Assembly (NCBI GenBank): GCA_000004985.1
Contig: GG738925.1
Source of the DNA: Naegleria gruberi
Lineage: Eukaryota
DNA: 64,000 bases
Strand: one strand, 5' to 3'
Positions 33,856 through 50,096 of the stretch are shown here, piece after piece; position 1 is the first letter of the stretch; each line of letters opens with the position of its first letter. The notes beneath the pieces were generated by a model. That model saw nothing but the letters and a program-made list of their open reading frames with translations, did not search any database and was not told the origin of the DNA. The translations under genes and the position numbers were made by a program.

Positions 33856-35904
33856 ATGAATGGAAATGGTCTTGGTGGCAGGGGTTTCTCTCAGAAAAAA
33901 CGAAAGTTTTTGGATCATTATTCATCAAACTTTATTAAACCGAGTAAATATTTAATTCTCTCTCAAGAAAATCTTTGCTCTGATAAACAGCAGGATGACA
34001 AAAATTCACACTTTCGAGAAACAAGAATTATTCCAGAGAGAAATAATTACAATATTCATTCCCATAGCCAAATAGTTGATGATTGTTGGCAGATTATTTT
34101 TGATTTTGTGGAAAAGATTGAAGATAGGAAGAGTATGATTCTTGTGTGTAAACATTGGGCCAACATGTTTATGCAACCATTTATTGGATATTGTTATGAG
34201 ATTTATGATGAAAATAGACATTTGAATGGATTGACAGAATATGTCGAAGAGAATGGAGAAGATGGATTTGTTTGTGAGGGAGGAATGTTTTTTACTGAAA
34301 TGGCAACTTGGAAGGAACCTCTTTGCTATGATAGTCTGGAAGAGGAGGAATACTCTGGATTTAATTGGGATAGAATTCCAGAAAATCAAGTGGAATTTGA
34401 AGGATCTTCTTATAGACAACGAATTCTTCCATTTGGGGTTCCTCTATGTAAGGAAACAATATCAGATCAATATGAATTGGTTTCTAGTGAAATTGATTCA
34501 AGTACTTATAGGAATATGGTAGAAAAATTTATGGGAATTCCAAAATCTGAACAGGGAGCATTATCTCTAAAACCTTTCGAATTGTACGAACAAATTGAAC
34601 ATGAAAAACAAATGGTTTACTCATACATTCATGAAATTCAAAAATCCCTAGATTTTGATGCTGGCAATGCAATTTATGCAGAAGGTAAGGTGATGTATAA
34701 TGATGATGATTTTTATGATTCTTCACAGAATGATCCAGAGTTTATATTTTACGCACTTCGATCTGGAATTCAAAGATTGGCCAGAAAAGCAGGTGTCAAA
34801 TACTTTGAACCTGCTGTGATTGAGGATTATCTTTATGAATTGAAGAGGGTAATTCATTTGGTGCTTGAGAATGCATACGAGAGAAAGTTTTCAAGAAAGA
34901 CTGCGAATTTGGTATTTGAGGAGTCATCTGAACAATATGAACAGTGTTATATCGATCCATGTGATGCCTATCTGCCAACATGTGATGACAATCTTGATAC
35001 AGATCTAAAATTGGATCATACGGAAATATTGGAATCATTTGAGAGAATTACTGGAATGAAAATGTTTTATCAACCAATCAAAGATCCTTATAACTTGAAC
35101 GATACAGATCTCAAGCAATACTTTGCATTAGAGAATGGTACTGAAACAGTTTCTGAATTGCAACCAAAAGAAGAGTTTAAATTTAAAGAGCCAACCATTT
35201 TCAGCAATGAATCTATCCCCGATATTCTGAATGAATCTCAAATAGATGAAGATCTCACTTCAGAGGAGAGTGAAGATGATTCAACTTTACAAACAATTGC
35301 AAATGACAACTTTATAGATGACAGCGAACTATACCATGTCGATTTGGATAATTTAGGAGATTCCCTTCAAGATCAATTACTGAAAGTGTCAATTCGTGTC
35401 CATGAAGAAGTCTACGGAAAGGAAAGAGCTCACAAAGAAAAGCTCTATCTCAAAAATTGGTACGGCTGTAGTGAATTGTTTTACGAGAATTGTTCCAAGG
35501 AATTGGATAATCCACCTTCCATGCAATTCACCCCAATTGAAGAAGATGCAATTTCTGAATCAAATGAAGATGGTATTGATGAAGAGGAAGAGGAAGAGAA
35601 ACGAACACGAGGAATACAAACTAAATTTTCTTCATTGGATTTTGAAGAGGAATCTGAAGTTTCTATTGATGGAGAGTTTGATGTTAAAGAACAAGATACT
35701 ATTGAAAGAGTTAATGAGGAAGATTTGGAATATTTTGGCTATGCTCTCTATGAAGATGATTTCGATGAATTTCCAATATTCAGTGACCAAGATGATTCAG
35801 AAGAAACTTTGGAACAGTCCTCTGAGGAGGAATCTCTTCGATATCATTTAAGAAGAATGCTAAGGGAACAATCTTATGAATGCATTGTTAATTATAACCA
35901 ATGA
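33856..35904 (+). CDS. F-box-like domain protein with long acidic C-terminal region
   Basis: F-box-like segment DDCWQIIFDFVEKIEDRKSMILVCKHWANMF near residue 75. The remainder is Asp/Glu-rich. Single 682-codon ORF. Confidence 0.5.
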   Translation: MNGNGLGGRGFSQKKRKFLDHYSSNFIKPSKYLILSQENLCSDKQQDDKNSHFRETRIIPERNNYNIHSHSQIVDDCWQIIFDFVEKIEDRKSMILVCKHWANMFMQPFIGYCYEIYDENRHLNGLTEYVEENGEDGFVCEGGMFFTEMATWKEPLCYDSLEEEEYSGFNWDRIPENQVEFEGSSYRQRILPFGVPLCKETISDQYELVSSEIDSSTYRNMVEKFMGIPKSEQGALSLKPFELYEQIEHEKQMVYSYIHEIQKSLDFDAGNAIYAEGKVMYNDDDFYDSSQNDPEFIFYALRSGIQRLARKAGVKYFEPAVIEDYLYELKRVIHLVLENAYERKFSRKTANLVFEESSEQYEQCYIDPCDAYLPTCDDNLDTDLKLDHTEILESFERITGMKMFYQPIKDPYNLNDTDLKQYFALENGTETVSELQPKEEFKFKEPTIFSNESIPDILNESQIDEDLTSEESEDDSTLQTIANDNFIDDSELYHVDLDNLGDSLQDQLLKVSIRVHEEVYGKERAHKEKLYLKNWYGCSELFYENCSKELDNPPSMQFTPIEEDAISESNEDGIDEEEEEEKRTRGIQTKFSSLDFEEESEVSIDGEFDVKEQDTIERVNEEDLEYFGYALYEDDFDEFPIFSDQDDSEETLEQSSEEESLRYHLRRMLREQSYECIVNYNQ

Positions 35905-36089: not shown

Positions 36090-37508
36090 ATGACCCTTAC
36101 TACCACTTCATGTCTCTACATTGATTCCGAAGGGAATTGGGTAGATAATAATCATCCAAAGAGAACAGCTCCCAAGGTTGGAGATTACATCACTCACAGA
36201 GTTAGACTTTCGTTTTTCGATCTCTGCTTGTACTATGCAAATATTGTTGATTATTTGCGAATTGTGATGGTTGTGGTGGCATTGATAGCACTCATTGTGA
36301 ATGATGAGATGAATTTGGGATGTAATTGGTCTTCGATTAGTATTTCTGTTTTGGTATTTGGAAGTGTTTTATTGGATTGGGTGGATGGTCCATTGGCAAG
36401 AAATTTTGGTCAATCTTCAGTGATGGGATGTGGATGGGATTGGTTGGCTGATATTCTTACTCAATTGTGTTTGGCTATTTGGTGTATGTCATTAAGTAGT
36501 GATTACAAGATTTTCAAGTTGTTTACCGTCTTATTGACAGCTGTTGAGATTAGTACAGGAATTTTCGATTTTGCTGTGAGTGCACAAGGAGTTTATCCAT
36601 CAATGCACAATACTGAGAACCTACCTTGGTATGCTATTGTTGAGCATTGGCTTACTCCTAATCATAGCTATAACAATTTGGGAATTATTTGTTGGTTGGT
36701 GAATACCTTGTATCCAATTACTGTATTTTTGCAACTTCCTTCCATTGTTTCTAATTCCCTAATTCCTTTTGCAATTCTCTATGCTTGGCATGAATGTACA
36801 CAATGTGTTTTTATTGTGGTTAATTGGAAGGAAACTGCAGTAACACTTCATCAAGAAGGAATCGAACATGTTAGAAAGTGTAATGATACTGAAATTGAAA
36901 TGCTGAAAACAGCTCACGAAGCAACCCTTAATACTCCAGTGGAACTTGATGACGAAGCTACAAAAATTAATGAAATCACATGGGTGAACTTGTACAATAA
37001 TGGGAAAATTTCACCAGTATTCGAAAATCATCCACTGCAAAAGGAATTCCACGATTGGGTTAAGAGTTTGGTTAAATCAAATTGGTTAGACGAACAGGAT
37101 CGTATTATTCTCTCATATGGCTTCATCACTGCACCAAAGAATGGAAATGTCACTCAAGATTGGCACTTTGATTATGGTGAAAATGTCAGCAATTTATTCA
37201 TTCCTCTCTGTGATGTGACAGAAAAGAATGGAACTCAATTTATTCGTGGACCTCTCAGACAAGATATGCCACCAGGTGAATATTTCCCTAGACCATTTGA
37301 AATTATGACTGAAGAAAAGTCAGAATGTCTACAAGTTTGTCAAGTGGTTTGTAAGGCATTTAATTTATTGAAATTGCACCCAGGTGTATGCCATAGAGGA
37401 ATAGCTAATGGCGAAAATTATGACCGAGTAATGTTCTTCTTGAGCACTAATCCAACTCCTTTAGATATTGGAGAAGAAGGATATTTGAATAAGGCAACCT
37501 ATGATTAA
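36090..37508 (+). CDS. CDP-alcohol phosphatidyltransferase family protein (phosphatidylinositol-synthase-like N-terminal domain) with long C-terminal extension
   Basis: LDWVDGPLARNFGQSSVMGCGWDWLADIL fits the CDP-OH phosphotransferase motif D-G-x2-A-R-x8-G-x3-D-x3-D. Several predicted TM helices sit in the first roughly 230 aa. The C-terminal roughly 240 aa are soluble and of unknown function. Confidence 0.65.
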   Translation: MTLTTTSCLYIDSEGNWVDNNHPKRTAPKVGDYITHRVRLSFFDLCLYYANIVDYLRIVMVVVALIALIVNDEMNLGCNWSSISISVLVFGSVLLDWVDGPLARNFGQSSVMGCGWDWLADILTQLCLAIWCMSLSSDYKIFKLFTVLLTAVEISTGIFDFAVSAQGVYPSMHNTENLPWYAIVEHWLTPNHSYNNLGIICWLVNTLYPITVFLQLPSIVSNSLIPFAILYAWHECTQCVFIVVNWKETAVTLHQEGIEHVRKCNDTEIEMLKTAHEATLNTPVELDDEATKINEITWVNLYNNGKISPVFENHPLQKEFHDWVKSLVKSNWLDEQDRIILSYGFITAPKNGNVTQDWHFDYGENVSNLFIPLCDVTEKNGTQFIRGPLRQDMPPGEYFPRPFEIMTEEKSECLQVCQVVCKAFNLLKLHPGVCHRGIANGENYDRVMFFLSTNPTPLDIGEEGYLNKATYD

Positions 37509-39220: not shown

Positions 39221-41622
39221 TTACAAGACGGAATCATTTATTAGAGATACTTTCAATGAGTCATGATGCTCAAATCTATAAATTGAACAGAATTGGTCAT
39301 CAATTTCAACAAAATTATTTTCATCCTTTTTTAGCATGATATTTCCAATCGACATTTCATCTCCAAGTTGGAGCACATTACTTTCCTCTTCTCTATTCTT
39401 TTGCAATCTTTTTTGAATGACATCTTTCAATTGATTCAATCCAATACTTTTTGGAATGGAAAGTCTAGTAGTTGGTGATTGCGTGCCAGTTGTTGTTACA
39501 AATGTCAAGAATACATTCACGGTTGGCTCTATGAATAATTCCTTCAAAATGTTTTTATCCTCTTCCTTAACTTGTTCAAATGTAGCAACAAGCGCTGTAT
39601 TATTCTCGTAATCTGATTTTTCCAAAGTTTCTGTTTCCATTTTAACTTCAAATTTTGGAATAATTTCATTTTCCTCTTTTTTCACAATAGGAGGTGGAAC
39701 ATTCATGTTAGGAAGAGACGTTTTTGCATCCTCTCTACTAGTACTGGTTACCATTGGTGGTGAATATGCTTGAGGAATACCAGATGCTACATGTACATTT
39801 CCAGGCAATGCTGGACCTGTTGCCACAATGGATGCCACACGAATTGGGGAAGGATTTGGAGAGTTTTGCAAATGTTCTTGAGTGTAAATCCTAGGTGAAT
39901 GTATCACATCTTCTCTGCCTGATGAACTAGTTCTATGTACATTACTACCATTACTGCTGTTGCTGTATGGATGATATCTGTGTGAAGAAAGTGGAGGTGC
40001 ACCATTTTCAACTCTTGCTGCGTTTTCATGCTTATTTTGACCATTGTTGAATGCATGCAATGGACTATTAGAATAATTTCTATTAACATTATTTGAAGTA
40101 TTATTTACAGTCTGCATTGCATTATTGGAAGGATTTGATCCAATCGCATAGGATGGAGGTGCAGTTCCCATCATTTCCATAATGGATGGAACAGATGTAT
40201 TAGTACCAGTGCCATTTCTAGGAGATTTTGGAGAAGTGGTTGCATGGGGATGTTGCATTGGTGAAGATCTCACAAATGGGTCATGCAAAGATGGTTGCAC
40301 CATACCTCCCCTGCTAGCAGCTCCTACATTATTACTCCCTCCACTACTTGTACTATTCGGTCCATTTAAATATTGAGAATTTTCATTGGATGCATATGGA
40401 TGGTAGTGATGAGATTTTCTATATGAAGATGATGAAGAATTTACATGTGTTGGTGATACAGGAGGTGAACGAGAATGACTTTGATAATGAGGAGGTGGTG
40501 GAGGTGCATTATGATGTGGAGAATAAGATGATGAATAATGTGCATGCATTGATGATCCATCATGTACAACATATGTATAATGTGGTGATGGTGGAGGAGG
40601 AGGTTGACTTTGCATGTCGTTATGATAGTACTTTACTCTGCCACTACTACCATTACTGTATTCTGCTTCATACTGTTTAGCATGATGCATGTCGACATGA
40701 TGATGATGTGAATGAACATGCATTCTAGATCCATCATGGTGATGGATGTTTCCTGCAGATGATGAAGGATAACCATGATGATGAGATGCATATTGTGCAT
40801 GATGCATGGTGCTGATAGTATTAGTATTACTAGTAGGATTAGTATTGAGTGATGGCAACACCCGAGATGCATGCGACACATGTGTATCACCAACACTACC
40901 TAGATGTCCATGAGGTGAAGGTGGAAGAGGTTGAGAAAGTGGACTATTCTCTTGTGTTGTTGTTGTTGCTCCCTTAGTTGTTGTTACATTATTCTTCCTT
41001 TTAACCTTGTTGATAGATAAACCAGTGACCTGAACATGTTCACATGTAATGAAAATGAAAATAATGAGAGATAGCAAGTTGACATGCAATTAATTTGATG
41101 TGCATTGTTGGAATACTTTTTTAGCAATTAAAACTTACATATTTGTATTTCTATTTAAAATCATGATTAGTTTTTGATATTAAAATTAAAAACTTACCTT
41201 TGCATAACAATTCTTACAAACACCATCTCCAATTCTAATTTCTGGTACATGTCTAAAGCATCCCTTATACTGTTCAATATTTGATTCGTTGATTGTATAG
41301 CTGATGTACTTATTTCCTGTTCACAATGTTCATTAGATCAGTGACACATGTCAAAGTATTAAAAGAGGTGATCCTGTCAGAAAATTAAGCGCTGTAAAAA
41401 CTTACCCGTGTCAGCTTTACCACAAATGATGCATGACTTGTGTTCTACCTGCTTGGCTTGAGTTTTTGCCATATGGTTCTTCATGGGATTTCTTTCTTGT
41501 GGTGTTGAATAAATATTCTGTTCCATAGTATTTTGTTGTGTTTCCATTGTGGGCCTTGAGATGGTATCAACCTCATTCAAATGTCTATGATACGAAGGAA
41601 CTGGACGAGTGGAGTTGGACAA
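39221..41622 (-). CDS. His/Pro/Ser-rich low-complexity protein with N-terminal Cys4 zinc-binding-like motif; at least 3 exons, 5' end lost in assembly gap
   Basis: Large exon 39221 to about 41029 (622-aa track ORF). It is rich in poly-His tracts (HVHSHHHHVDMHH, HHHGYPSS), PPPPP runs and Asn/Ser runs. The upstream exon about 41198..41316 and the exon about 41396..41622 are joined by GTAAGT...CAG introns. Together they encode ...CIICGKADTG-NKYISYTINESNIEQYKGCFRHVPEIRIGDGVCKNCYAK-VTGLSINKVKRK. The gene runs into the N-gap at 41655. Confidence 0.5.
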
Positions 41623-41654: not shown

Positions 41655-41900
41655 NNNNNNNNNNNNNNNNNNNNNNNNNNNNNNNNNNNNNNNNNNNNNN
41701 NNNNNNNNNNNNNNNNNNNNNNNNNNNNNNNNNNNNNNNNNNNNNNNNNNNNNNNNNNNNNNNNNNNNNNNNNNNNNNNNNNNNNNNNNNNNNNNNNNNN
41801 NNNNNNNNNNNNNNNNNNNNNNNNNNNNNNNNNNNNNNNNNNNNNNNNNNNNNNNNNNNNNNNNNNNNNNNNNNNNNNNNNNNNNNNNNNNNNNNNNNNN
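41655..41900. other. assembly gap (run of N)
   Basis: About 246 consecutive n characters. Track ORF 41649..42023 (poly-X) is an artefact of this gap. Confidence 1.
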
Positions 41901-42000: not shown

Positions 42001-44486
42001 TCAATAGACATGAGCAGTTATAATTTCCAAAGCTTCCTTTGAGGATACTCTCTCTTCTGGGAGAAATTTGAGTGTTCCCTTCAAGAGAGTTTCCAGTTTT
42101 GCCATGGATGGCTTTCCAACTTTATCTGAATATATTCTCTCAATTTCACACTGAATGCATGCAAGTGTTTTTTCCTCTCCTTTTTGTATCATTTCCAAGA
42201 AGATATTCTTCCTCTCATTTCTTGTTAATAATTGATAGAGAACAATACCAGCGGACCATACATCGGCTTTTAGTCCATATCCTTGATTGAGTTGAAGCTC
42301 TGGGCTTTGGAATCCCATTGTTCCACTCACACTAAAAGCTCTACTTTCAACAATATGCTTGGAGAGACCAAAATCACCAACAAGAACATGCACTTTGGAG
42401 ATTTGATTTCTTTCATTCTTTTCAATGGAACCAATGAGAATATTTTGTGGTTTGATATCACGATGAATAACTTTTTTGGAGTGGAGCTCAACTAGAGCTG
42501 AGAATATTTGTTGCATGATTGAAATTATTGTTTTGAGTGGTAATATTGCAGCATCGGAAGTTCTAATGAGAGAGGACAAATCACCATATGGATAGTAGTG
42601 CATGACAATACACAGTACTGCACAGTCACTATTCGTATCGCTCTCCAAAGAAATTGGGTTGTAGTAATGTTGAAAGACATCTAAAACTTTAACAATATTT
42701 GGGTGATTGAACATAAGCATTTGGAGTGCCTCCTTCATAGCATCATTGAATGATTGATTAGAATTACTATGATCCATATCAACTGGGAGTAATTTGAGAG
42801 CTACTTGCTTTGTCTGTGAGGAAGATCCAAAATGATCTTCACACAAATAGACTGAGGAAAATCCACCACTTTGAATTTTTCTAAGAGGCAAGTATCTTTC
42901 ATTCCATAGTTGACTCTTTGGTTCTTGTGGAGAGGGAATAGATAAAGAAGATGCTGTATATGAAATATTGAAGGAGCTAAAACTCAATTTGGTGGAAGGA
43001 TTGGAAATTGGAGTAACTGGAGGAGAGTTGGTGGAAATTCTAATTTGATTAACATGTGGAGATTCCACAAGAAGGTCCAAATCATCCAACTCTATATAGT
43101 CATCACACTCTCTATCAAGGATTTCAATAAAGGAAATTCTTTGATTGCCCCTCAATATGGTTTCACACTTGTCCTTGATGAACTCTTCCACTGAATGAAT
43201 TGAAGGGAAAGGACTCTTTTGAGTGAGTTTCTTCTTTCTTGAACCGTGTTGAATCATCATGATATACCTGGGTTTATCATTCTTTTGAGAATTGTTTACA
43301 GTTGTTGTGGTCAAGTTTGGATTCACAGTATTTTCAACATGTTTCATTATCCAAGGATGATGAGTGAGATTCTTAATCAAAGATCGGGTGTAGGAATGAT
43401 TCTTGAAACACAGATTGAGGAAATCAATTACTGACTCTGAACATGACTCAGATTTAGGATAGTACTTTCTAATCATTTCTTCCATATTCTTTCCACTCGA
43501 TAACAGCTCAAATAAGGAATTCCAATCATAATCATAGAAGGGTCTTCTCTCAGTCATGAGCTCAATAACCAAACATCCAACACTCCAAATATCTGCCAAT
43601 GCTTGTTTTGTCCACTCACAACTCTTATTACATTTGAACAATGAAGGTGAGCTATAATTGATACATGGTTGATATTTAATATACTCATCTCTGGATAACA
43701 CAAATCCAATATCACACAATTTGATTTGTCCATTCCTGGATAACATGGTATTATTGGGAGTCAAATTCAGGTGTGCCATTTTGAGTTTCTGATGCATGAA
43801 CATAATACCCTGCAATACCTGATCAATATACTTGGCAATTACCTTCTCACTTGGTTTATATCCTTTCTGGGAGAGCATGGATAAGGAACCATTTTCTAGG
43901 AATTCCTCAACAACCACATAGAATTCCTCACCCTCCAAAATATTACCACTATCATTCATGATTGGAAGGGTGACACTGGCAAAGGTATGAGCCAGATATG
44001 GACTATATTCATTACTCAATTGTTTTGCTTTGAGGGTTTCAATTCGTTCTCTCAATTTTGGAACTACATCTTGATTGTAAACATGCTTGATTACTACAAA
44101 GTTTCCAGTTTGGATGTGATAGCCTTTGTAGATTTTATAGTACCAATTCTTTCCTAAACAATCAGATTCTCTATTTACTTGCTGTTCCTTCTTTGAGTAT
44201 TTTGAACTTTCTAACAACTTACATAGTTTCCAATATTTAACAAGGAATTTCCTGGATTGATTGCATGGCTTTCACTCGAAATACTACAACGTCTAAAGTT
44301 TTGATCATAGAATAGGAGAGGTCGTTTCCAATTCTCTTCCTCATCATCCACCAACAGATTATTTCCCAGCAATTGATTATTGTCATTAATTATTTGACAC
44401 GTAGCAGGTTCTAAATTTTCAGGATTTGCTGCTGCTTGTTCAAAACCTCGATCAGAGGAGTTTTTAGGAGAAGCAACTTGTTGCAT
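42001..44486 (-). CDS. tandem protein-kinase-domain protein: N-terminal degenerate (pseudo)kinase domain + C-terminal canonical Ser/Thr kinase domain; 2 exons
   Basis: Exon 1 runs about 44223..44486 (MQQVASPKNSS...NIGNY) and ends at a GTAAGT donor. A 41-nt intron runs to gaacAG (about 44182). Exon 2 is 42001..44181. Domain 1 has VVIK, the catalytic loop reads AHLNLTPNN (no catalytic Asp), and DIGF replaces DFG. Domain 2 has GGFSSVY, VALK, VIHRDIKPQNIL, VGDFGLSK and GTMGFQSPE, all canonical. Confidence 0.75.
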
Positions 44487-44936
44487 TTTTATTTGTATTG
44501 CAATTGGTAATTTCCCAACTATGTACTACCATATTTGGAAATTTGTGATATCTATATCACAAGAGAATCTTTGAAGGATATCTATCTCTATTATCCTTAA
44601 ATCTGTTGTTGACTGTGCAACAAATCTTCAAGAACTTGTTACATGTTTGCCTTAATATTTAACAGAATGCTACAAAGATGTTATTGTGGACCAAATTTTC
44701 CTCAATCCCAAGCAATATTACTACTTCATGAACAACGTTCCATATTAAACTGCTCCACCGAGCATGTGCTGGTATAGGAAAAACTCAGGTCATGAAACCT
44801 GAAAACAATTCGCTCAATATTAACATCACCTCGATTTATTTGGAACGGTGAGAGAAGAACTTTGGACTAGAAGAAGAACAAGGAGAGAAAAAATTGTCCA
44901 CACACACATTTCAATAGAACCGCATACACACACGTG

Positions 44937-47082
44937 ATGACCATGAGTGAAGAAAATCAACCTCAATCATCATCACGCTGCTCTTCCCCGACTTGTTCCC
45001 TTAATGATTCAGCATCCTCCTCAATAACAATGGCAACAGTATCATCGGTGGTGACTAAGAGTGATCTGATTTTGAATATTGCTGTTGGGAATAATTTTGG
45101 AGAAGAAGAAGAAGAGCGAGCAAGTGTTGTACAGAATAACTATTATTCAACTCCCTTACATACACATCGAGAAAGTGGGTTGATATCGAGTGCAGTTCCC
45201 TTCACTACTTCACCTCAACATTGTTCATCATCAACATCGATTAAGAGAATGGTTCAGATCAATATTAGTTCGGAGGTTACATTGGGACAAATGAAGAGGT
45301 GTCTCACGAATGTTATGGCTTGTGATATTCATGCTGTATTTGTGAGAGTCCTGTGTTCGAGATGTGAAAATTCATATACACTTCTTGGTGAGACCAATAA
45401 GCTCTATCTTACTGATCAATATTCGGAAAAAACAAAACTCTCATTCAGTAAGGGAGTTGAAATTGAATATAATTTTGAAATGTTGAATTCTATAAGATTG
45501 GAGTTGTATGGTTTTGCAGCAGTTACTTTGAGATCATCCATTGATTATAGTGCATCATATAGTGAGGACGCCAAGTTTATTGGTTTTTCAAGAGATATTG
45601 AACTGATTCATATTGTGAATGGTAAACAATCAAAAATTGAACTGTACTCTGGGAGAGAGACACTGATATCGAGTTTAAATTTACAAAGCGATCTCTACTA
45701 TGAGATTGGTAACAATCAAGAATTGAGAGATTTGATAGAATCAACCAAACGATGTGACCTTGCCGAGTTGGAGACATTATTGACAGAAGTGCCACCAACC
45801 ATTTTCACGGAAACAAACATGATCACTTTCAAATGTAGAGCTATGGGATTGGATAGGAAAGATATATTCGCTCTCAGTGACCCTTTTATTGTGATTTTGA
45901 ATGATGAAAAGGAAATTTTCAGGAGTGAAGTTATTAAGGTAAGTTATTTCTAAAGTTTATTATGTGAAATAATTTCTATTTTTTAAAATTTATAATATTT
46001 AGAATATGCTCGATCCTGAATGGAATAGTTTTTCGATATCTTCATCCAAGCTTTGTGAAAATGACTATAACAAACAATTGAAAGTGAGATGCTATGATTG
46101 GGATTTAATATCTAGTAATGACCTCATTGGAGAGTTTTACTTTACTATTCTCCAAGTACTCAATGGAAATAAGCTCTATGAAATTATAGAGCCAAACCTT
46201 GCCAGAAAGAAAAAGGGATACAAACACTCTGGCATCTTTCAATTTTTACATGTGACAGAGTTTATGGGCAATGAGGAGAGTAAAAATCCAGAAAGAATAA
46301 TCTATGAAAAGATGATATGTTTAAAGAAGAATAAGGAGCTACTCTTCATGGATTATATAGAAGATGGATTCAATCTCTCTCTACACTTTGCAATTAGTTT
46401 CAGTAAGGAAAATTCTTCATTACATTTTCAAGGTAACAAGAATACCTATGAAAGAGTTTTGAAAACCTTTGGAAGAGTATGCGAGTGTTATTGTGATACT
46501 GAATTTTCCATGTATGGATATTCAGCAATCCAAAGAACAGCAAGTTCTCCTCAACAACAGCCATTCTTTACCTTAGACGACATGTATATAAATTCAATGA
46601 AATTTACAGGATACGAGAGAGCAATTAATACCTACCGAACAGGTTTGCAAAATATTGATTTTGATGAATTATCAAATGTGAGAAATCCAAAAACTAATCT
46701 CAATTTTAGAAATGATGATTTCTATCACTTGATTAATCATGTTTCGAACAATGTGGAAGAAAATGAGAAAACCTACAAGGTTCTTGTTATCATGATTAAT
46801 GGAGATGATATTGAGCTACAAAGAACTGTTGATGCACTTGTCGATTGCAGTTCTAAACCCATATCAATAATAATACTAGGAGTTGGATCCTGTTCCTTCT
46901 CCTCCTGTAAAATTCTATTCAGCAATAACCAATTTCAACATGGCTCAACTGGAAAGAAACCAATTCGGTGCAATGTTAAATTTGTTAGACTTCAAGATGT
47001 AAATGAGAATGCCTATTCGAAAATACTTGCAGATATTCCAAAGCAATTTGTAGAATATTATCAAATTAATAAAGTTTTCTGA
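44937..47082 (+). CDS. copine (C2-C2-vWA/copine domain, Ca2+-dependent membrane-binding protein); 2 exons
   Basis: ATG 44937. Exon 1 ends ...FRSEVIK followed by a GTAAGT donor (45939). A 64-nt intron runs to tttAG (46002). Exon 2 begins NMLDPEWNSF..., with C2 hallmarks (ALSDPFIVILND, RCYDWDLISSNDLIGE). The C-terminal copine/vWA-like region includes KVLVIMINGDDIELQRTVDALVDCSSKPISIIILGVGS and VKFVRLQDV. Confidence 0.85.
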
Positions 47083-47166
47083 AAGGCTCGATTGCTTATT
47101 CGAAACATTTCACTCTCACATCCAATAAAGGCTTTGCTAATTGGCGCCAAAATAACGATTAAAAAA

Positions 47167-50096
47167 ATGTCGCAAGAACAAACTCTCGAACAACAAGAAA
47201 CAGTGGAGGAAGATTCTCATCTTGTGGTCGATTTGGATTCGATAGAGCATACTGTCATTGGTTTGGCATTGGAAGGTAGAGAGGAACATCCACTTGCTAA
47301 ATTCCAAACACTCTCTGTTGAGGAATTATATAAACAACACTTTCAATTGAATGGAAGTAATACAACATCAATGAAGGCTATTTTCGACAATGGTCTCGAT
47401 GATGAACAAGTTAAACAACAACGACAAAAATTCGGGGAGAATGATATTTATACAAAATTAGTGGAAAAGTCTAGTTCGAAAATTTCATTCTGGAAGGTTT
47501 TCATTTCCGAAGTGAGAGAACCAATGATTTTAATGTTGTTTGTGGTTGGAATATTATATTTCATTTGGGATTCATTGTGGAATGCTATTGTTGTGTTTTC
47601 CTGCATTATCTTGATGGTTTTGGTCGAGGTTGGAAATGAATACAGATCAAAGAGAGGCGTGATGGAGCTCAAGTCTTCTTATTTCATGTCAAAGACTTGT
47701 ACTGTAAGGAGAAATGGTATTCTTTCTAATATTTCAGTTTCTGATCTTGTTCCAGGAGATGTTATTAACTTTAATGGAGGACAAATTCTTCCAGCTGATG
47801 TGAGACTTTATAATTATGAAAATAGACAGATTAGTGTTCAAGTGGATGAATCTATTTTGACTGGTGAATCAATGGTTTGCAATAAGCATGGTAACAACAT
47901 CTCTTCGAATGAAGACATGTCAAAGTGTGAAAACATTCTACTGACAGGAACCTCAATCAAGAAAGGAAAAGGTTTCGGTATAGTAGTTAATGTTGGTTGT
48001 GAAAATACTGGACTCGGTAATATTCTCAAGCTATTAGGTAAAAGTATGGAAAAGGATAAGAAAACTGAACTCCAAAAAACTATGAAAGAACTTGCCAAGT
48101 ATTTGACAATCATATCTATTGTGATGGCTTCCATTATTGTCATTGTAGGTTGGATTAGAGGATTTGACTGGAAAAAGATGCTACTTTCAGGACTCAGTAT
48201 TATGTTTGCCACTATTCCTGAGGAATTACCAATCATCATTAAGAGCGTTCTTGCTTTGGGCTCTCTTAATCTCTCAAAAAGAGTCTTCTCATTAAGAAAC
48301 TTCATGTTCCAGAATCTTTGGCCAATATTACACATATAATAACAGATAAGACAGGTACAATTACTAAAAATTGTCTCCAACTCATTCAAGTCAATCAGGT
48401 TGATAAGGATGGAAATGTAGATCTTGTCTACGATACAAAGAAACAAATGGAAAAGAATAATTGGATTATAGAATGGTTGCTTTCTGGTTATACTGAAGTT
48501 GGTGCGGATTTAGCTGATCCATTTGAAAAGAGTGTTTCTGAAGAGTTAGAAAGATGTTCTAACCAATCGTGGAAAGGATTTTTGAAAAACAGAACTGAAA
48601 ACTCTTACAGCATTGTAGATGAGATGCCATTCGATCATACCAAAGGGTTTGCTACCCTTATTCTTTCTTCTGGAGAATCTAAGTTTGTTACTCATAAGGG
48701 AATTCCAGAGAGAATGATCACTAATTGTTTGTTCTACCAAGTATCTAATGAATCAGAACAAGTACCAATGACTGAAGAGGTAAGAGAACGTATCCTATCG
48801 TTTTTGGAGGTTGAAACAACGAAAGGAATGAGAGTAATTTGTCTATGCAAAGACAATGAACAATCACAGATGGTTTTTGTGTCATTGCTTTCATTCACAG
48901 ACCCTCTTAGAAGTGGTGTCAAGGAAGCAATTTCTGATTGCAAAAATGCAGGAATTAAGGTAATAATTGTGAGTGGTGATCACACAAACACAGTAATATC
49001 AGCAGCTAGGGAATGTGGACTATTGAGCAGTGTAAAACAAGATTTATTAGTTGAAGAGCATGAGCATTCAGAAGATGAAGACATTGAATTAGAAGCTTCC
49101 CTTCTCTCCAATAGACAATCTGTATGTATTGAAGGAAAGGATGTCAACGATAAAATGGATGTTGACTCTGTTTGTGCCATTTCGAGAGCAACACCTCAAA
49201 ATAAGTACGACTTGGTTGAAATGTTAAAAGAACAGAAGGGATATAAGGTTCTCGTCTCAGGTGATGGTATGAATGATGTTCCAGCAATTTCCAATGCAAC
49301 TGTTGGAATTGCTATGAGATCTGGAGTTGATTTGGCGAAAGAGGCAGCTGAAATCATCATAATGGATGATAATTTTGCTACCATTGTGGCTGGCATTAGA
49401 GAAGGAAGAAGATTGTATGCAAATTTGAGAAAATCTTTGCAATTCTACTTGTCATGCAAAGTCACCCTTGTTGTATTGTTTGTTACAAACATGATTGTTG
49501 GTGGTTCGAGTGCTATTCCATTTATTCCTCTCGAGCCAATGCAAATTATTCTTCTAGAACTATTTAGTGATATTGGAGCAGCCACTACCTTTGTGTTGGA
49601 AGAGGAAGAGGAAACCTTAATGAAAAATCCACCAAGGACCGAGAAGAATTTTGTTGACAAATCCTTTATTTATCACATAATAATTGGCTCCATATCTCTC
49701 TTTGCTACAGTATTCTCATCTTACATGTTAGGAGTGTTTGTGCTATCTCCAATGTATGGTCTTGAAGGTTCCTCTCACCAAGAATATGCTCAAAGTATGA
49801 CAATGATTGCTTGGCTGATTGGTCACGTCTTTTTAGGTTACAATTTCAGAACTATATCTACCCCTCTAACGATTCACGGTATTTTCTCAAACACTATGAT
49901 GAATGTTTGGTTTGCTGTTGTGTTGATTTCAGTTTTGCTACTCCAATTTGTTCCAATCCTCTACACTGCTCTGAGGTTGCAACCTTTGGGATTTATTGGG
50001 CATATTTCTATTTGGCTCCTCATTCTCATATTTATTGGATGGCAGGAAGCACTGAAATGGATAACAAGGTTATTGAAAATTAAACAAACTCTTTAA
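47167..50096 (+). CDS. P-type cation-transporting ATPase (P2-like) with a 1-nt frame disruption at about 48300
   Basis: ATG 47167. TM4 motif IPEELP, phosphorylation motif ITDKTGTITKN, and hinge motif GDGMNDVPAI. The two track ORFs (47092..48339 and 48318..50096) are in different frames. The switch needed (…SLRNF to HVPESLANITHIITDKTGT) lies at about 48298-48305, where no intron is possible. This indicates an indel at the a/t homopolymer: either a sequencing error or a recent pseudogene. Confidence 0.7.

Follow-up and report, generated by a model that had tools for sequence, protein, structure and literature searches.

A predicted STE20-like pseudokinase fused to a PB1-like domain and a Ser/Thr kinase in Naegleria gruberi and its relatives

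Introduction

What might a degenerate kinase domain do when it precedes an apparently active one in a single chain of a free-living amoeboflagellate? This question is raised by a gene of Naegleria gruberi found on the minus strand, at positions 42,001 to 44,486 of a 64,000-nucleotide stretch of contig GG738925.1 (GenBank assembly GCA_000004985.1) that we analysed as a whole, hereafter called the window. The initial annotation of this gene, made from the DNA letters alone, had described a JAK-like tandem of a degenerate and a canonical kinase domain. The well-studied pseudokinase-kinase tandems are those of the JAK proteins of animals, of GCN2 in animals and fungi and of the plant tandem kinase-pseudokinases (TKPs), and they represent the best natural systems for the control of a live kinase by a dead one. 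We present evidence that the N. gruberi gene codes for a STE20-like predicted pseudokinase fused to a module made of a PB1-like domain and a Ser/Thr kinase, and we discuss its putative non-catalytic role.

Results

Two kinase domains of different groups in one polypeptide

The two halves of the predicted protein were scanned separately with the Pfam Pkinase signature (PF00069, gathering threshold of 31.7 bits). The N-terminal half matched it with 111.8 bits (E = 4.9e-32, residues 97-366, profile positions 7-263 of 263) and the C-terminal half with 147.2 bits (E = 7.9e-43, residues 521-807, profile positions 4-259). Both domains are found in one stop-free frame of 738 codons, which runs from position 44217 down to the TGA codon at 42003-42001, and the protein ends 7 residues past the second domain. 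The succession of a degenerate and a canonical kinase domain in one polypeptide, as initially proposed, is thus confirmed, and the motifs on which that proposal was based (VVIK, AHLNLTPNN and DIGF in the first domain, VALK, HRDIKPQN, DFG and SPE in the second) are all present at the expected places.

In phmmer alignments of the N-terminal domain with MKK4 and TNIK, its H-L-N and D-I-G coincide with H-R-D and D-F-G, respectively, the Lys of the catalytic loop is matched by a Thr, and GKNWYY takes the place of GNGTYG in the glycine loop. Asn227 thus stands where the catalytic-base Asp is expected, the catalytic loop has no Lys, and only one of the three glycines of the glycine loop is left. K120 (the β3 Lys, in the VVIK motif at residues 117-120), N232 (the Asn of the catalytic loop) and D245 (the metal-binding Asp at the DFG position) are retained. 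As a pseudokinase is defined by sequence as a domain without at least one of the VAIK Lys, the HRD Asp and the DFG Asp, the N-terminal domain, with Asn227 in place of the HRD Asp, is a pseudokinase by this usual definition, and its inactivity itself is predicted.

The initial annotation credited the C-terminal domain with every canonical motif. This holds for VALK, HRDIKPQN, DFG and SPE, to which an αC Glu can be added, but not for the glycine loop, IQSGGFSSV, which is partly non-canonical and keeps the middle glycine alone. Such middle-glycine-only loops are found throughout the orthogroup described below, as QSGGFSS or NTGGFSS, and in the Willaertia orthologue DFG is replaced by DFN (CDFNLSK).

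As a single sequence, the N-terminal half has MKK4 (64 bits) and TNIK as its best matches. In profile searches of the PDB, TNIK, MINK and MAP4K4 score best (6e-24), MKK4/6 are also among the relatives, and DAPK2, CDKL2 and ULK3 are within approximately 15 bits of the top group. For the C-terminal half the best match is ULK2, both as a single sequence (79 bits) and as a profile (4e-35); ULK1 is also among its best PDB relatives, and calcium-dependent protein kinases (CDPKs), NEK7 and DCLK1 follow closely. These match scores, obtained without a tree, point to a STE20-like N-terminal half and a ULK/CDPK/NEK-like C-terminal half, with families below the group level being uncertain in both cases. 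Membership of the ULK/ATG1 family was rejected for the C-terminal domain, as the CDPKs and NEK7 score almost equally to ULK2 and the Pfam scan found no ATG1 C-terminal MIT/EAT domain. A closer active relative of the pseudokinase was not identified in a word-indexed profile search, whose matches, at 23-32% identity, were limited to generic kinases and proteins named MAP3K and did not include the orthologues.

Internal duplication, the origin usually invoked for the JAK tandem, had been suggested as something to test in this gene. When compared with each other, the two halves align over 118 residues with 22% identity and 27 bits, a score below the 64 and 79 bits that link them to human MKK4 and ULK2, respectively. 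They are not each other's closest relatives, and we therefore rejected internal duplication. The STE20-like nature of one half, the ULK/CDPK/NEK-like nature of the other and their low mutual score indicate that two domains from different kinase groups were joined by fusion.

Orthologues and conservation of the pseudokinase

The same architecture was found in three further genomes or contigs. Over approximately 90% of its length, the window protein shares 54% identity with FDP41_013630 of the pathogen N. fowleri, 50% with a protein coded by an environmental contig and 40% with ABK040_003925 of Willaertia magna. The last of these is coded by a single intronless ORF (open reading frame) of 972 codons and has the same domain layout. 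In a library of 1.84 billion representative proteins, a full-length HMMER profile collected the Willaertia protein (P0003, 1432 bits), a member of an environmental/Naegleria cluster (P0002, 1362 bits) and a 258-residue fragment from an ENA metagenome contig (P0025, 467 bits), the latter identical to the C-terminus of the window protein. The next match, at 251 bits, belongs to unrelated multi-kinase proteins. To judge from this library, the orthogroup does not extend beyond Naegleria and heteroloboseans of the Willaertia type. The initial annotation had placed the gene in a fungal lineage-specific kinase expansion, which we dismiss: the organism is N. gruberi, orthologues come only from N. fowleri, W. 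magna and a related metagenome contig, and the entire window harbours only one other kinase-bearing ORF, so that no kinase expansion is seen locally.

In an alignment of the four orthologues, invariant columns represent 35.9% of the pseudokinase, 35.2% of the active kinase, 25% of the PB1-like linker and 0-10% of the two spacers. The degenerate positions themselves are fixed, with G98-x-N100-W101-Y102-Y103, K120, H225-L226-N227, N232 and D245-I-G-F identical in all four proteins. The most conserved parts of the pseudokinase are the elements of the former ATP cleft, namely the glycine loop, the hinge EEFLENGSL, HLN and DIG, and the Glu of the APE motif is missing in three of the four orthologues. 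Because the share of invariant columns matches that of the active kinase and the degenerate motifs are fixed, these sequence comparisons argue that the pseudokinase is under constraint comparable to that of its neighbour and is no decaying relic.

A PB1-like domain between the two kinases

The initial annotation overlooked a conserved block of approximately 80 residues between the kinase domains. Its predicted model has a ββαββαβ β-grasp topology superposable on PB1 structures, and both fold searches returned PB1/β-grasp proteins. By eye, an acidic stretch of the form D-x-[DE]-x-[DN]-x-[YF]-I-E-L-D-[DS]-L-[DS]-L resembles an OPCA motif. No Pfam domain was matched by the linkers of the window protein and its orthologues, and a word-indexed search with the linker profile yielded no matches. 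We consider with moderate confidence, as the model was built from six sequences, that this linker is a PB1-like β-grasp domain.

Three Willaertia paralogues harbour the same linker and the same type of kinase behind differing N-termini (see the last rows of Table 1). Since the PB1-like and kinase domains thus occur together behind other N-terminal regions, the simplest history would be that heteroloboseans already had a 'PB1-like + kinase' module, to which a kinase domain of the STE type was added. Loss of the catalytic residues, followed by the freezing of the degenerate motifs, probably took place before the split between Naegleria and Willaertia.

Gene structure

On the minus strand, exon 1 extends from the start ATG at 44486 to 44223 (88 codons) and is directly followed by GTAAGT, and exon 2 extends from 44181 to 42004, ahead of the stop codon. 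The frame is restored by either of two acceptors, which define an intron of 41 nt (44222-44182, ending in ACAG) or of 32 nt (44222-44191, ending in AAAG). In N. fowleri, the orthologue is interrupted at this very codon boundary, GNY|QVN, by an intron of 61 nt (GTAAGT...TAG); the metagenomic orthologue on contig L002 also has its intron at this junction, and the intronless Willaertia ORF reads ...DYQVNK... across it. This comparison favours the 41-nt acceptor over the 32-nt one and supports the short 5' exon and 41-nt intron of the initial annotation.

The last 30 residues of exon 1 are conserved in N. fowleri, L002 and Willaertia. Within this otherwise divergent, disordered N-terminus, an RRxS motif reads QNFRRCSI(S/T)S in N. 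fowleri and L002 and RRPSI in Willaertia; it could be a phosphosite for a basophilic kinase or a pseudosubstrate.

Genomic neighbourhood

A 246-nt run of N (41655-41900) forms an assembly gap approximately 100 bp past the stop codon and leaves the coding sequence untouched; the gap may contain the 3' untranslated region and terminator of the gene. Neighbouring ORFs at 33856-35901 and 36090-37505 exactly match the N. gruberi proteins XP_002669530.1 and XP_002669531.1. No deposited N. gruberi model of the gene itself was found by similarity searches, in which self-matches were possibly masked, or by nine exact look-ups. The gene may thus be unannotated in N. gruberi, possibly owing to the adjacent gap. 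As no deposited model was found, counts of the N. gruberi kinome may miss it.

The other kinase-bearing ORF of the window (28249-30285, minus strand), 12 kb away, codes for 679 residues, in which ankyrin repeats and a spacer rich in Pro and Gln are combined with a kinase domain that we predict to be a second pseudokinase. This domain reads HRNIKPHN, with Asn at the position of the HRD Asp, and has IGFR where DFG is expected. With 153 bits to profile A6, it falls into the heterolobosean family of the C-terminal domain of the tandem protein, but the ORF has no PB1-like linker.

Divergently upstream of the gene are found a copine-like gene (44934-47079, plus strand) and a gene for a P-type cation ATPase (47092-50093, plus strand) split over two ORFs. 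The Pfam C2 and Copine matches are on ORF 46006-47079, and ORF 44934-45950, without a match, presumably belongs to that gene too. A P-type ATPase is also encoded near the N. fowleri orthologue (contig L001, 13574-14671), which suggests loose microsynteny with rearrangement. In N. fowleri and L002, an Acyl_transf_1 gene is located directly upstream of the orthologue. Just downstream of the gap, a 622-residue ORF (39221-41089, minus strand) rich in His, Pro, Ser and Asn, with poly-His and poly-Pro runs, has no Pfam match.

Table 1. Features of the tandem kinase gene (window positions) and organisation of the Willaertia paralogues
Feature	Residues	Positions	Strand	Remarks
Whole coding gene	1-814	42001..44486	-	2 exons; 814 residues + TGA stop
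Exon 1, low-complexity N-terminus	1-88	44223..44486	-	ORF opening at ATG 44486
Basic phospho-acceptor-like motif FRRCSIS (RRxS)	64-70	44277..44297	-	conserved
Phase-0 intron, 41 nt, GTAAGT...ACAG		44182..44222	-	alternative in-frame acceptor at 44191
STE20-like predicted pseudokinase domain	97-366	43348..44157	-	Pfam Pkinase 111.8 bits alone
Degenerate glycine loop LGKNWYYKIYKG		44122..44157	-	G-x-N-W-Y-Y for GxGxxG; alignment to MKK4/TNIK
Catalytic loop AHLNLTPNN	224-232	43750..43776	-	aligned under HRDIKPSN of MKK4
DIGF in DFG(x) position	245-248	43702..43713	-	aligned under DFG of MKK4 and TNIK
PB1-like β-grasp domain (predicted)	394-473	43027..43266	-	acidic OPCA-like stretch LDRECDDYIELDDLDLL (43069-43119)
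Ser/Pro/Thr-rich, poorly conserved spacer	474-512	42910..43026	-	10% invariant columns; predicted local distance difference test (pLDDT) <50
Ser/Thr kinase domain, ULK/CDPK/NEK-like	521-807	42025..42885	-	Pfam Pkinase 147.2 bits alone
VALK	548-551	42793-42804	-	C-terminal domain motif
HRDIKPQN	661-668	42442-42465	-	C-terminal domain motif
DFG	691-693	42361-42375	-	C-terminal domain motif
SPE	714-716	42298-42309	-	C-terminal domain motif
Willaertia paralogue P0028				ankyrin repeats + linker + kinase
Willaertia paralogue P0030				different N-terminal region without Pfam match + linker + kinase
Willaertia paralogue P0074				two linker-like copies + kinase

Discussion

Proposed role of the pseudokinase

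Our overall interpretation, which we hold with rather more confidence than doubt, is that a STE20-like pseudokinase fused to a PB1-like and kinase module acts non-catalytically in cis. By analogy with known systems, its likely role is to regulate in cis, or to serve for docking on, a kinase that is assembled through the PB1-like domain. The C-terminal domain would be the only phosphotransfer output of the protein. The PB1-like domain would mediate homo- or hetero-oligomerisation and bring the kinase domains together for trans-autophosphorylation; the PB1 pairings of MEKK2/3 with MEK5 and of aPKC with Par6, as well as the ubiquitin-like domain of PKD, are precedents for such assembly. The pseudokinase might offer a regulatory or docking surface to the kinase, as a clamp or as an activator, and regulation of either sign could be envisaged. 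It might also bind nucleotides or act in a nucleotide-dependent manner, since the Lys, Asn and Asp residues are retained and the former ATP cleft is extremely conserved. The nearest analogies would be the action of JH2 on JH1 in JAK and that of the STE20-like STRAD on its CAMK-like client LKB1.

Several points weigh against this interpretation. The PB1 assignment depends on a model of moderate confidence, and the Pfam PB1 signature (PF00564, gathering threshold of 23.6 bits) is matched neither in the window protein nor in its orthologues, with a sub-threshold match (16.1 bits, E = 0.011) solely in the paralogue P0028. We could not recognise the canonical β1 Lys that marks type-B PB1 domains, and a basic cluster, RKKK, is located on the predicted β2 strand rather than on β1. 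PDB profile searches with the linker gave weak matches to EF-hand loops (E of 0.003-0.04). The full-length AlphaFold2 model, built from four sequences, has a pLDDT of 51.8 and is too poor for inter-domain contacts. The activity of the C-terminal domain is assumed, given its atypical QSGGFSS glycine loop and the DFN of the Willaertia protein. Lastly, the HxN pseudokinases JAK2 JH2 and HER3 keep weak activity, and the term 'non-catalytic' is accordingly a prediction. As for the EF-hand matches, we ascribed them to the acidic stretch D-x-D-x-N-x-Y-I-x-L-D-x-L and rejected an EF-hand linker, as no paired EF-hand was found and the fold searches point to PB1/β-grasp.

A different view is that the pseudokinase has no effect on the C-terminal kinase and instead works in trans, offering partners of STE20/MAPK-cascade kinases a surface for docking, a decoy or a scaffold, and would thereby target the attached kinase to these partners. 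The STE20-like character of the domain fits this view, as do the ankyrin repeats of P0028 and the non-kinase N-terminus of P0030, which precede the same PB1-like and kinase unit and suggest that the N-terminal position is occupied by a swappable targeting module. Decoy or scaffold roles of pseudokinases have also been documented or proposed (PMC6170490, PMC13519141), as in the decoy model of plant tandem kinases. However, it is the former active-site cleft that is conserved, not just surface patches, and a conformational or nucleotide-related role fits this pattern at least as well. We thus regard action in trans alone as rather unlikely, and scaffold and cis-regulator roles are not mutually exclusive.

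It is also conceivable, and in our opinion less probable still, that the N-terminal domain is not dead but works as an atypical kinase or one of low activity, engaged in a two-domain phospho-relay as in RSK/MSK or in the autophosphorylation of regulatory sites in the manner of JAK2 JH2. Its Lys120, Asn232 and Asp245 are kept and do not vary among the orthologues, the ATP-cleft elements are its best-conserved parts, and the HxN loops of JAK2 JH2 and HER3 bind ATP/Mg (PMC13519141). Against residual activity, the losses affect the catalytic base, the Lys of the catalytic loop and two glycines of the glycine loop all at once, the APE Glu is missing in most orthologues, and the phosphate site may be blocked by the bulky W-Y-Y of that loop. 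An elaborate version of regulation in cis, which we find similarly doubtful, would make the protein a self-contained switch, in which a nucleotide-binding STE20-like pseudokinase is the STRAD-like activator or JH2-like clamp of the ULK/CAMK-like kinase, the PB1-like domain polymerises head to tail and the RRxS motif forms a pseudosubstrate or autophosphorylation latch. If true, this would represent an independently evolved, cis-encoded pair of a pseudokinase and its client in Discoba, and such logic would not be limited to animals and plants. Finally, that two adjacent genes have been read as one, or that the first domain is a decaying, functionless kinase, is highly improbable: a missing deposited model and a gap approximately 100 bp 3' of the stop codon would be in line with it, but the gap is outside of the coding sequence, both domains belong to one stop-free frame of 738 codons, the architecture recurs in three further genomes or contigs, including an intronless case, and the pseudokinase is conserved like the active kinase while the spacers have diverged freely.

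Comparison with known systems

The preferred interpretation, a fused pseudokinase acting in cis, finds its closest architectural counterparts in JAK and GCN2, which also have a pseudokinase directly N-terminal to an active kinase in one chain and which are established precedents for cis regulation and dimerisation (PMC13519141). The replacement of the HRD Asp by Asn is also shared with JAK2 JH2 and with HER3 (PMC13519141). The 'JAK-like' label of the initial annotation is therefore apt for the domain order and not for homology: in the window protein the halves come from different kinase groups and have a PB1-like domain between them, and the relationship is limited to the kinase fold. Membership of the JAK family was rejected, as the Pfam scan revealed no FERM or SH2 domain and the best relatives are Ser/Thr kinases of the STE20 and ULK/CDPK types, not tyrosine kinases. 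Membership of the GCN2 family was rejected as well, given that the same scan gave no RWD or HisRS match. Among the top 60 PDB matches of the C-terminal domain there is no GCN2 or eIF2α-kinase structure as such; the sole related entry is a PKR-fusion chimaera (6npy), which ranks below the ULK and CDPK structures.

Plant TKPs of the 'fusion' type, such as WTK1/Yr15, arose by independent, polyphyletic fusions of kinase domains from different families, one of which is degenerate (PMC6170490), and in this respect they resemble the window protein. They differ from it in that they derive from RLK/Pelle kinases, usually have the kinase ahead of the pseudokinase and function in immunity, whereas the N. 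gruberi protein joins STE20-like and ULK/CAMK-like domains, in the order pseudokinase then kinase, in a free-living amoeboflagellate. In the STRADα-LKB1 complex with MO25, a STE20-family pseudokinase is likewise paired with a CAMK-like kinase, LKB1, which STRAD activates allosterically. However, STRAD is a separate protein acting in trans, and the C-terminal domain described here is not LKB1-like, ULK, CDPK and NEK kinases being its best matches. RSK and MSK similarly combine two kinase domains of different groups (AGC and CAMK) in one chain, with one regulating the other, but both RSK domains are active, they belong to other families and RSK has no PB1-like linker. In MEKK2/3, MEK5 and aPKC the PB1 domain is N-terminal, whereas the PB1-like domain of the window protein, which remains below the Pfam PB1 threshold, is located between two kinases.

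Composite kinases recur in protists, and P. infestans in particular encodes proteins with two eukaryotic protein kinase (ePK) domains (PMC3019232). Both domains come from the same family in that case and from different groups in the window protein. Closer to N. gruberi, the N. lovaniensis protein C9374_006567 (P0027) has three kinase domains, of which the first (HGD) and the third (HRS, GFG) are degenerate, and thus also mixes canonical and degenerate domains; it belongs to a separate orthogroup, with at most 251 bits to the full-length profile as compared with at least 1362 bits for the orthologues. In a 2911-residue ENA protein (P0026), 10 separate stretches are matched by the query profile. 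Outside animals and plants, tandem arrays of kinases with pseudokinases among them therefore seem to be common. Given that protists commonly have composite kinases, such an architecture is in itself no surprise, and nothing in our findings contradicts current understanding.

Literature searches yielded nothing specific on the Naegleria kinome or its tandem kinases, and the combination of a STE20-like pseudokinase, a PB1-like domain and a ULK/CAMK-like kinase was not found in the literature searched. The presence of the orthologue FDP41_013630 in N. fowleri extends the finding to a pathogen. Compared with the systems discussed above, the tandem theme itself is well known; what is new here is the lineage-restricted combination of the three domains, which adds an example from Discoba to the case for the repeated evolution of the pseudokinase-kinase architecture.

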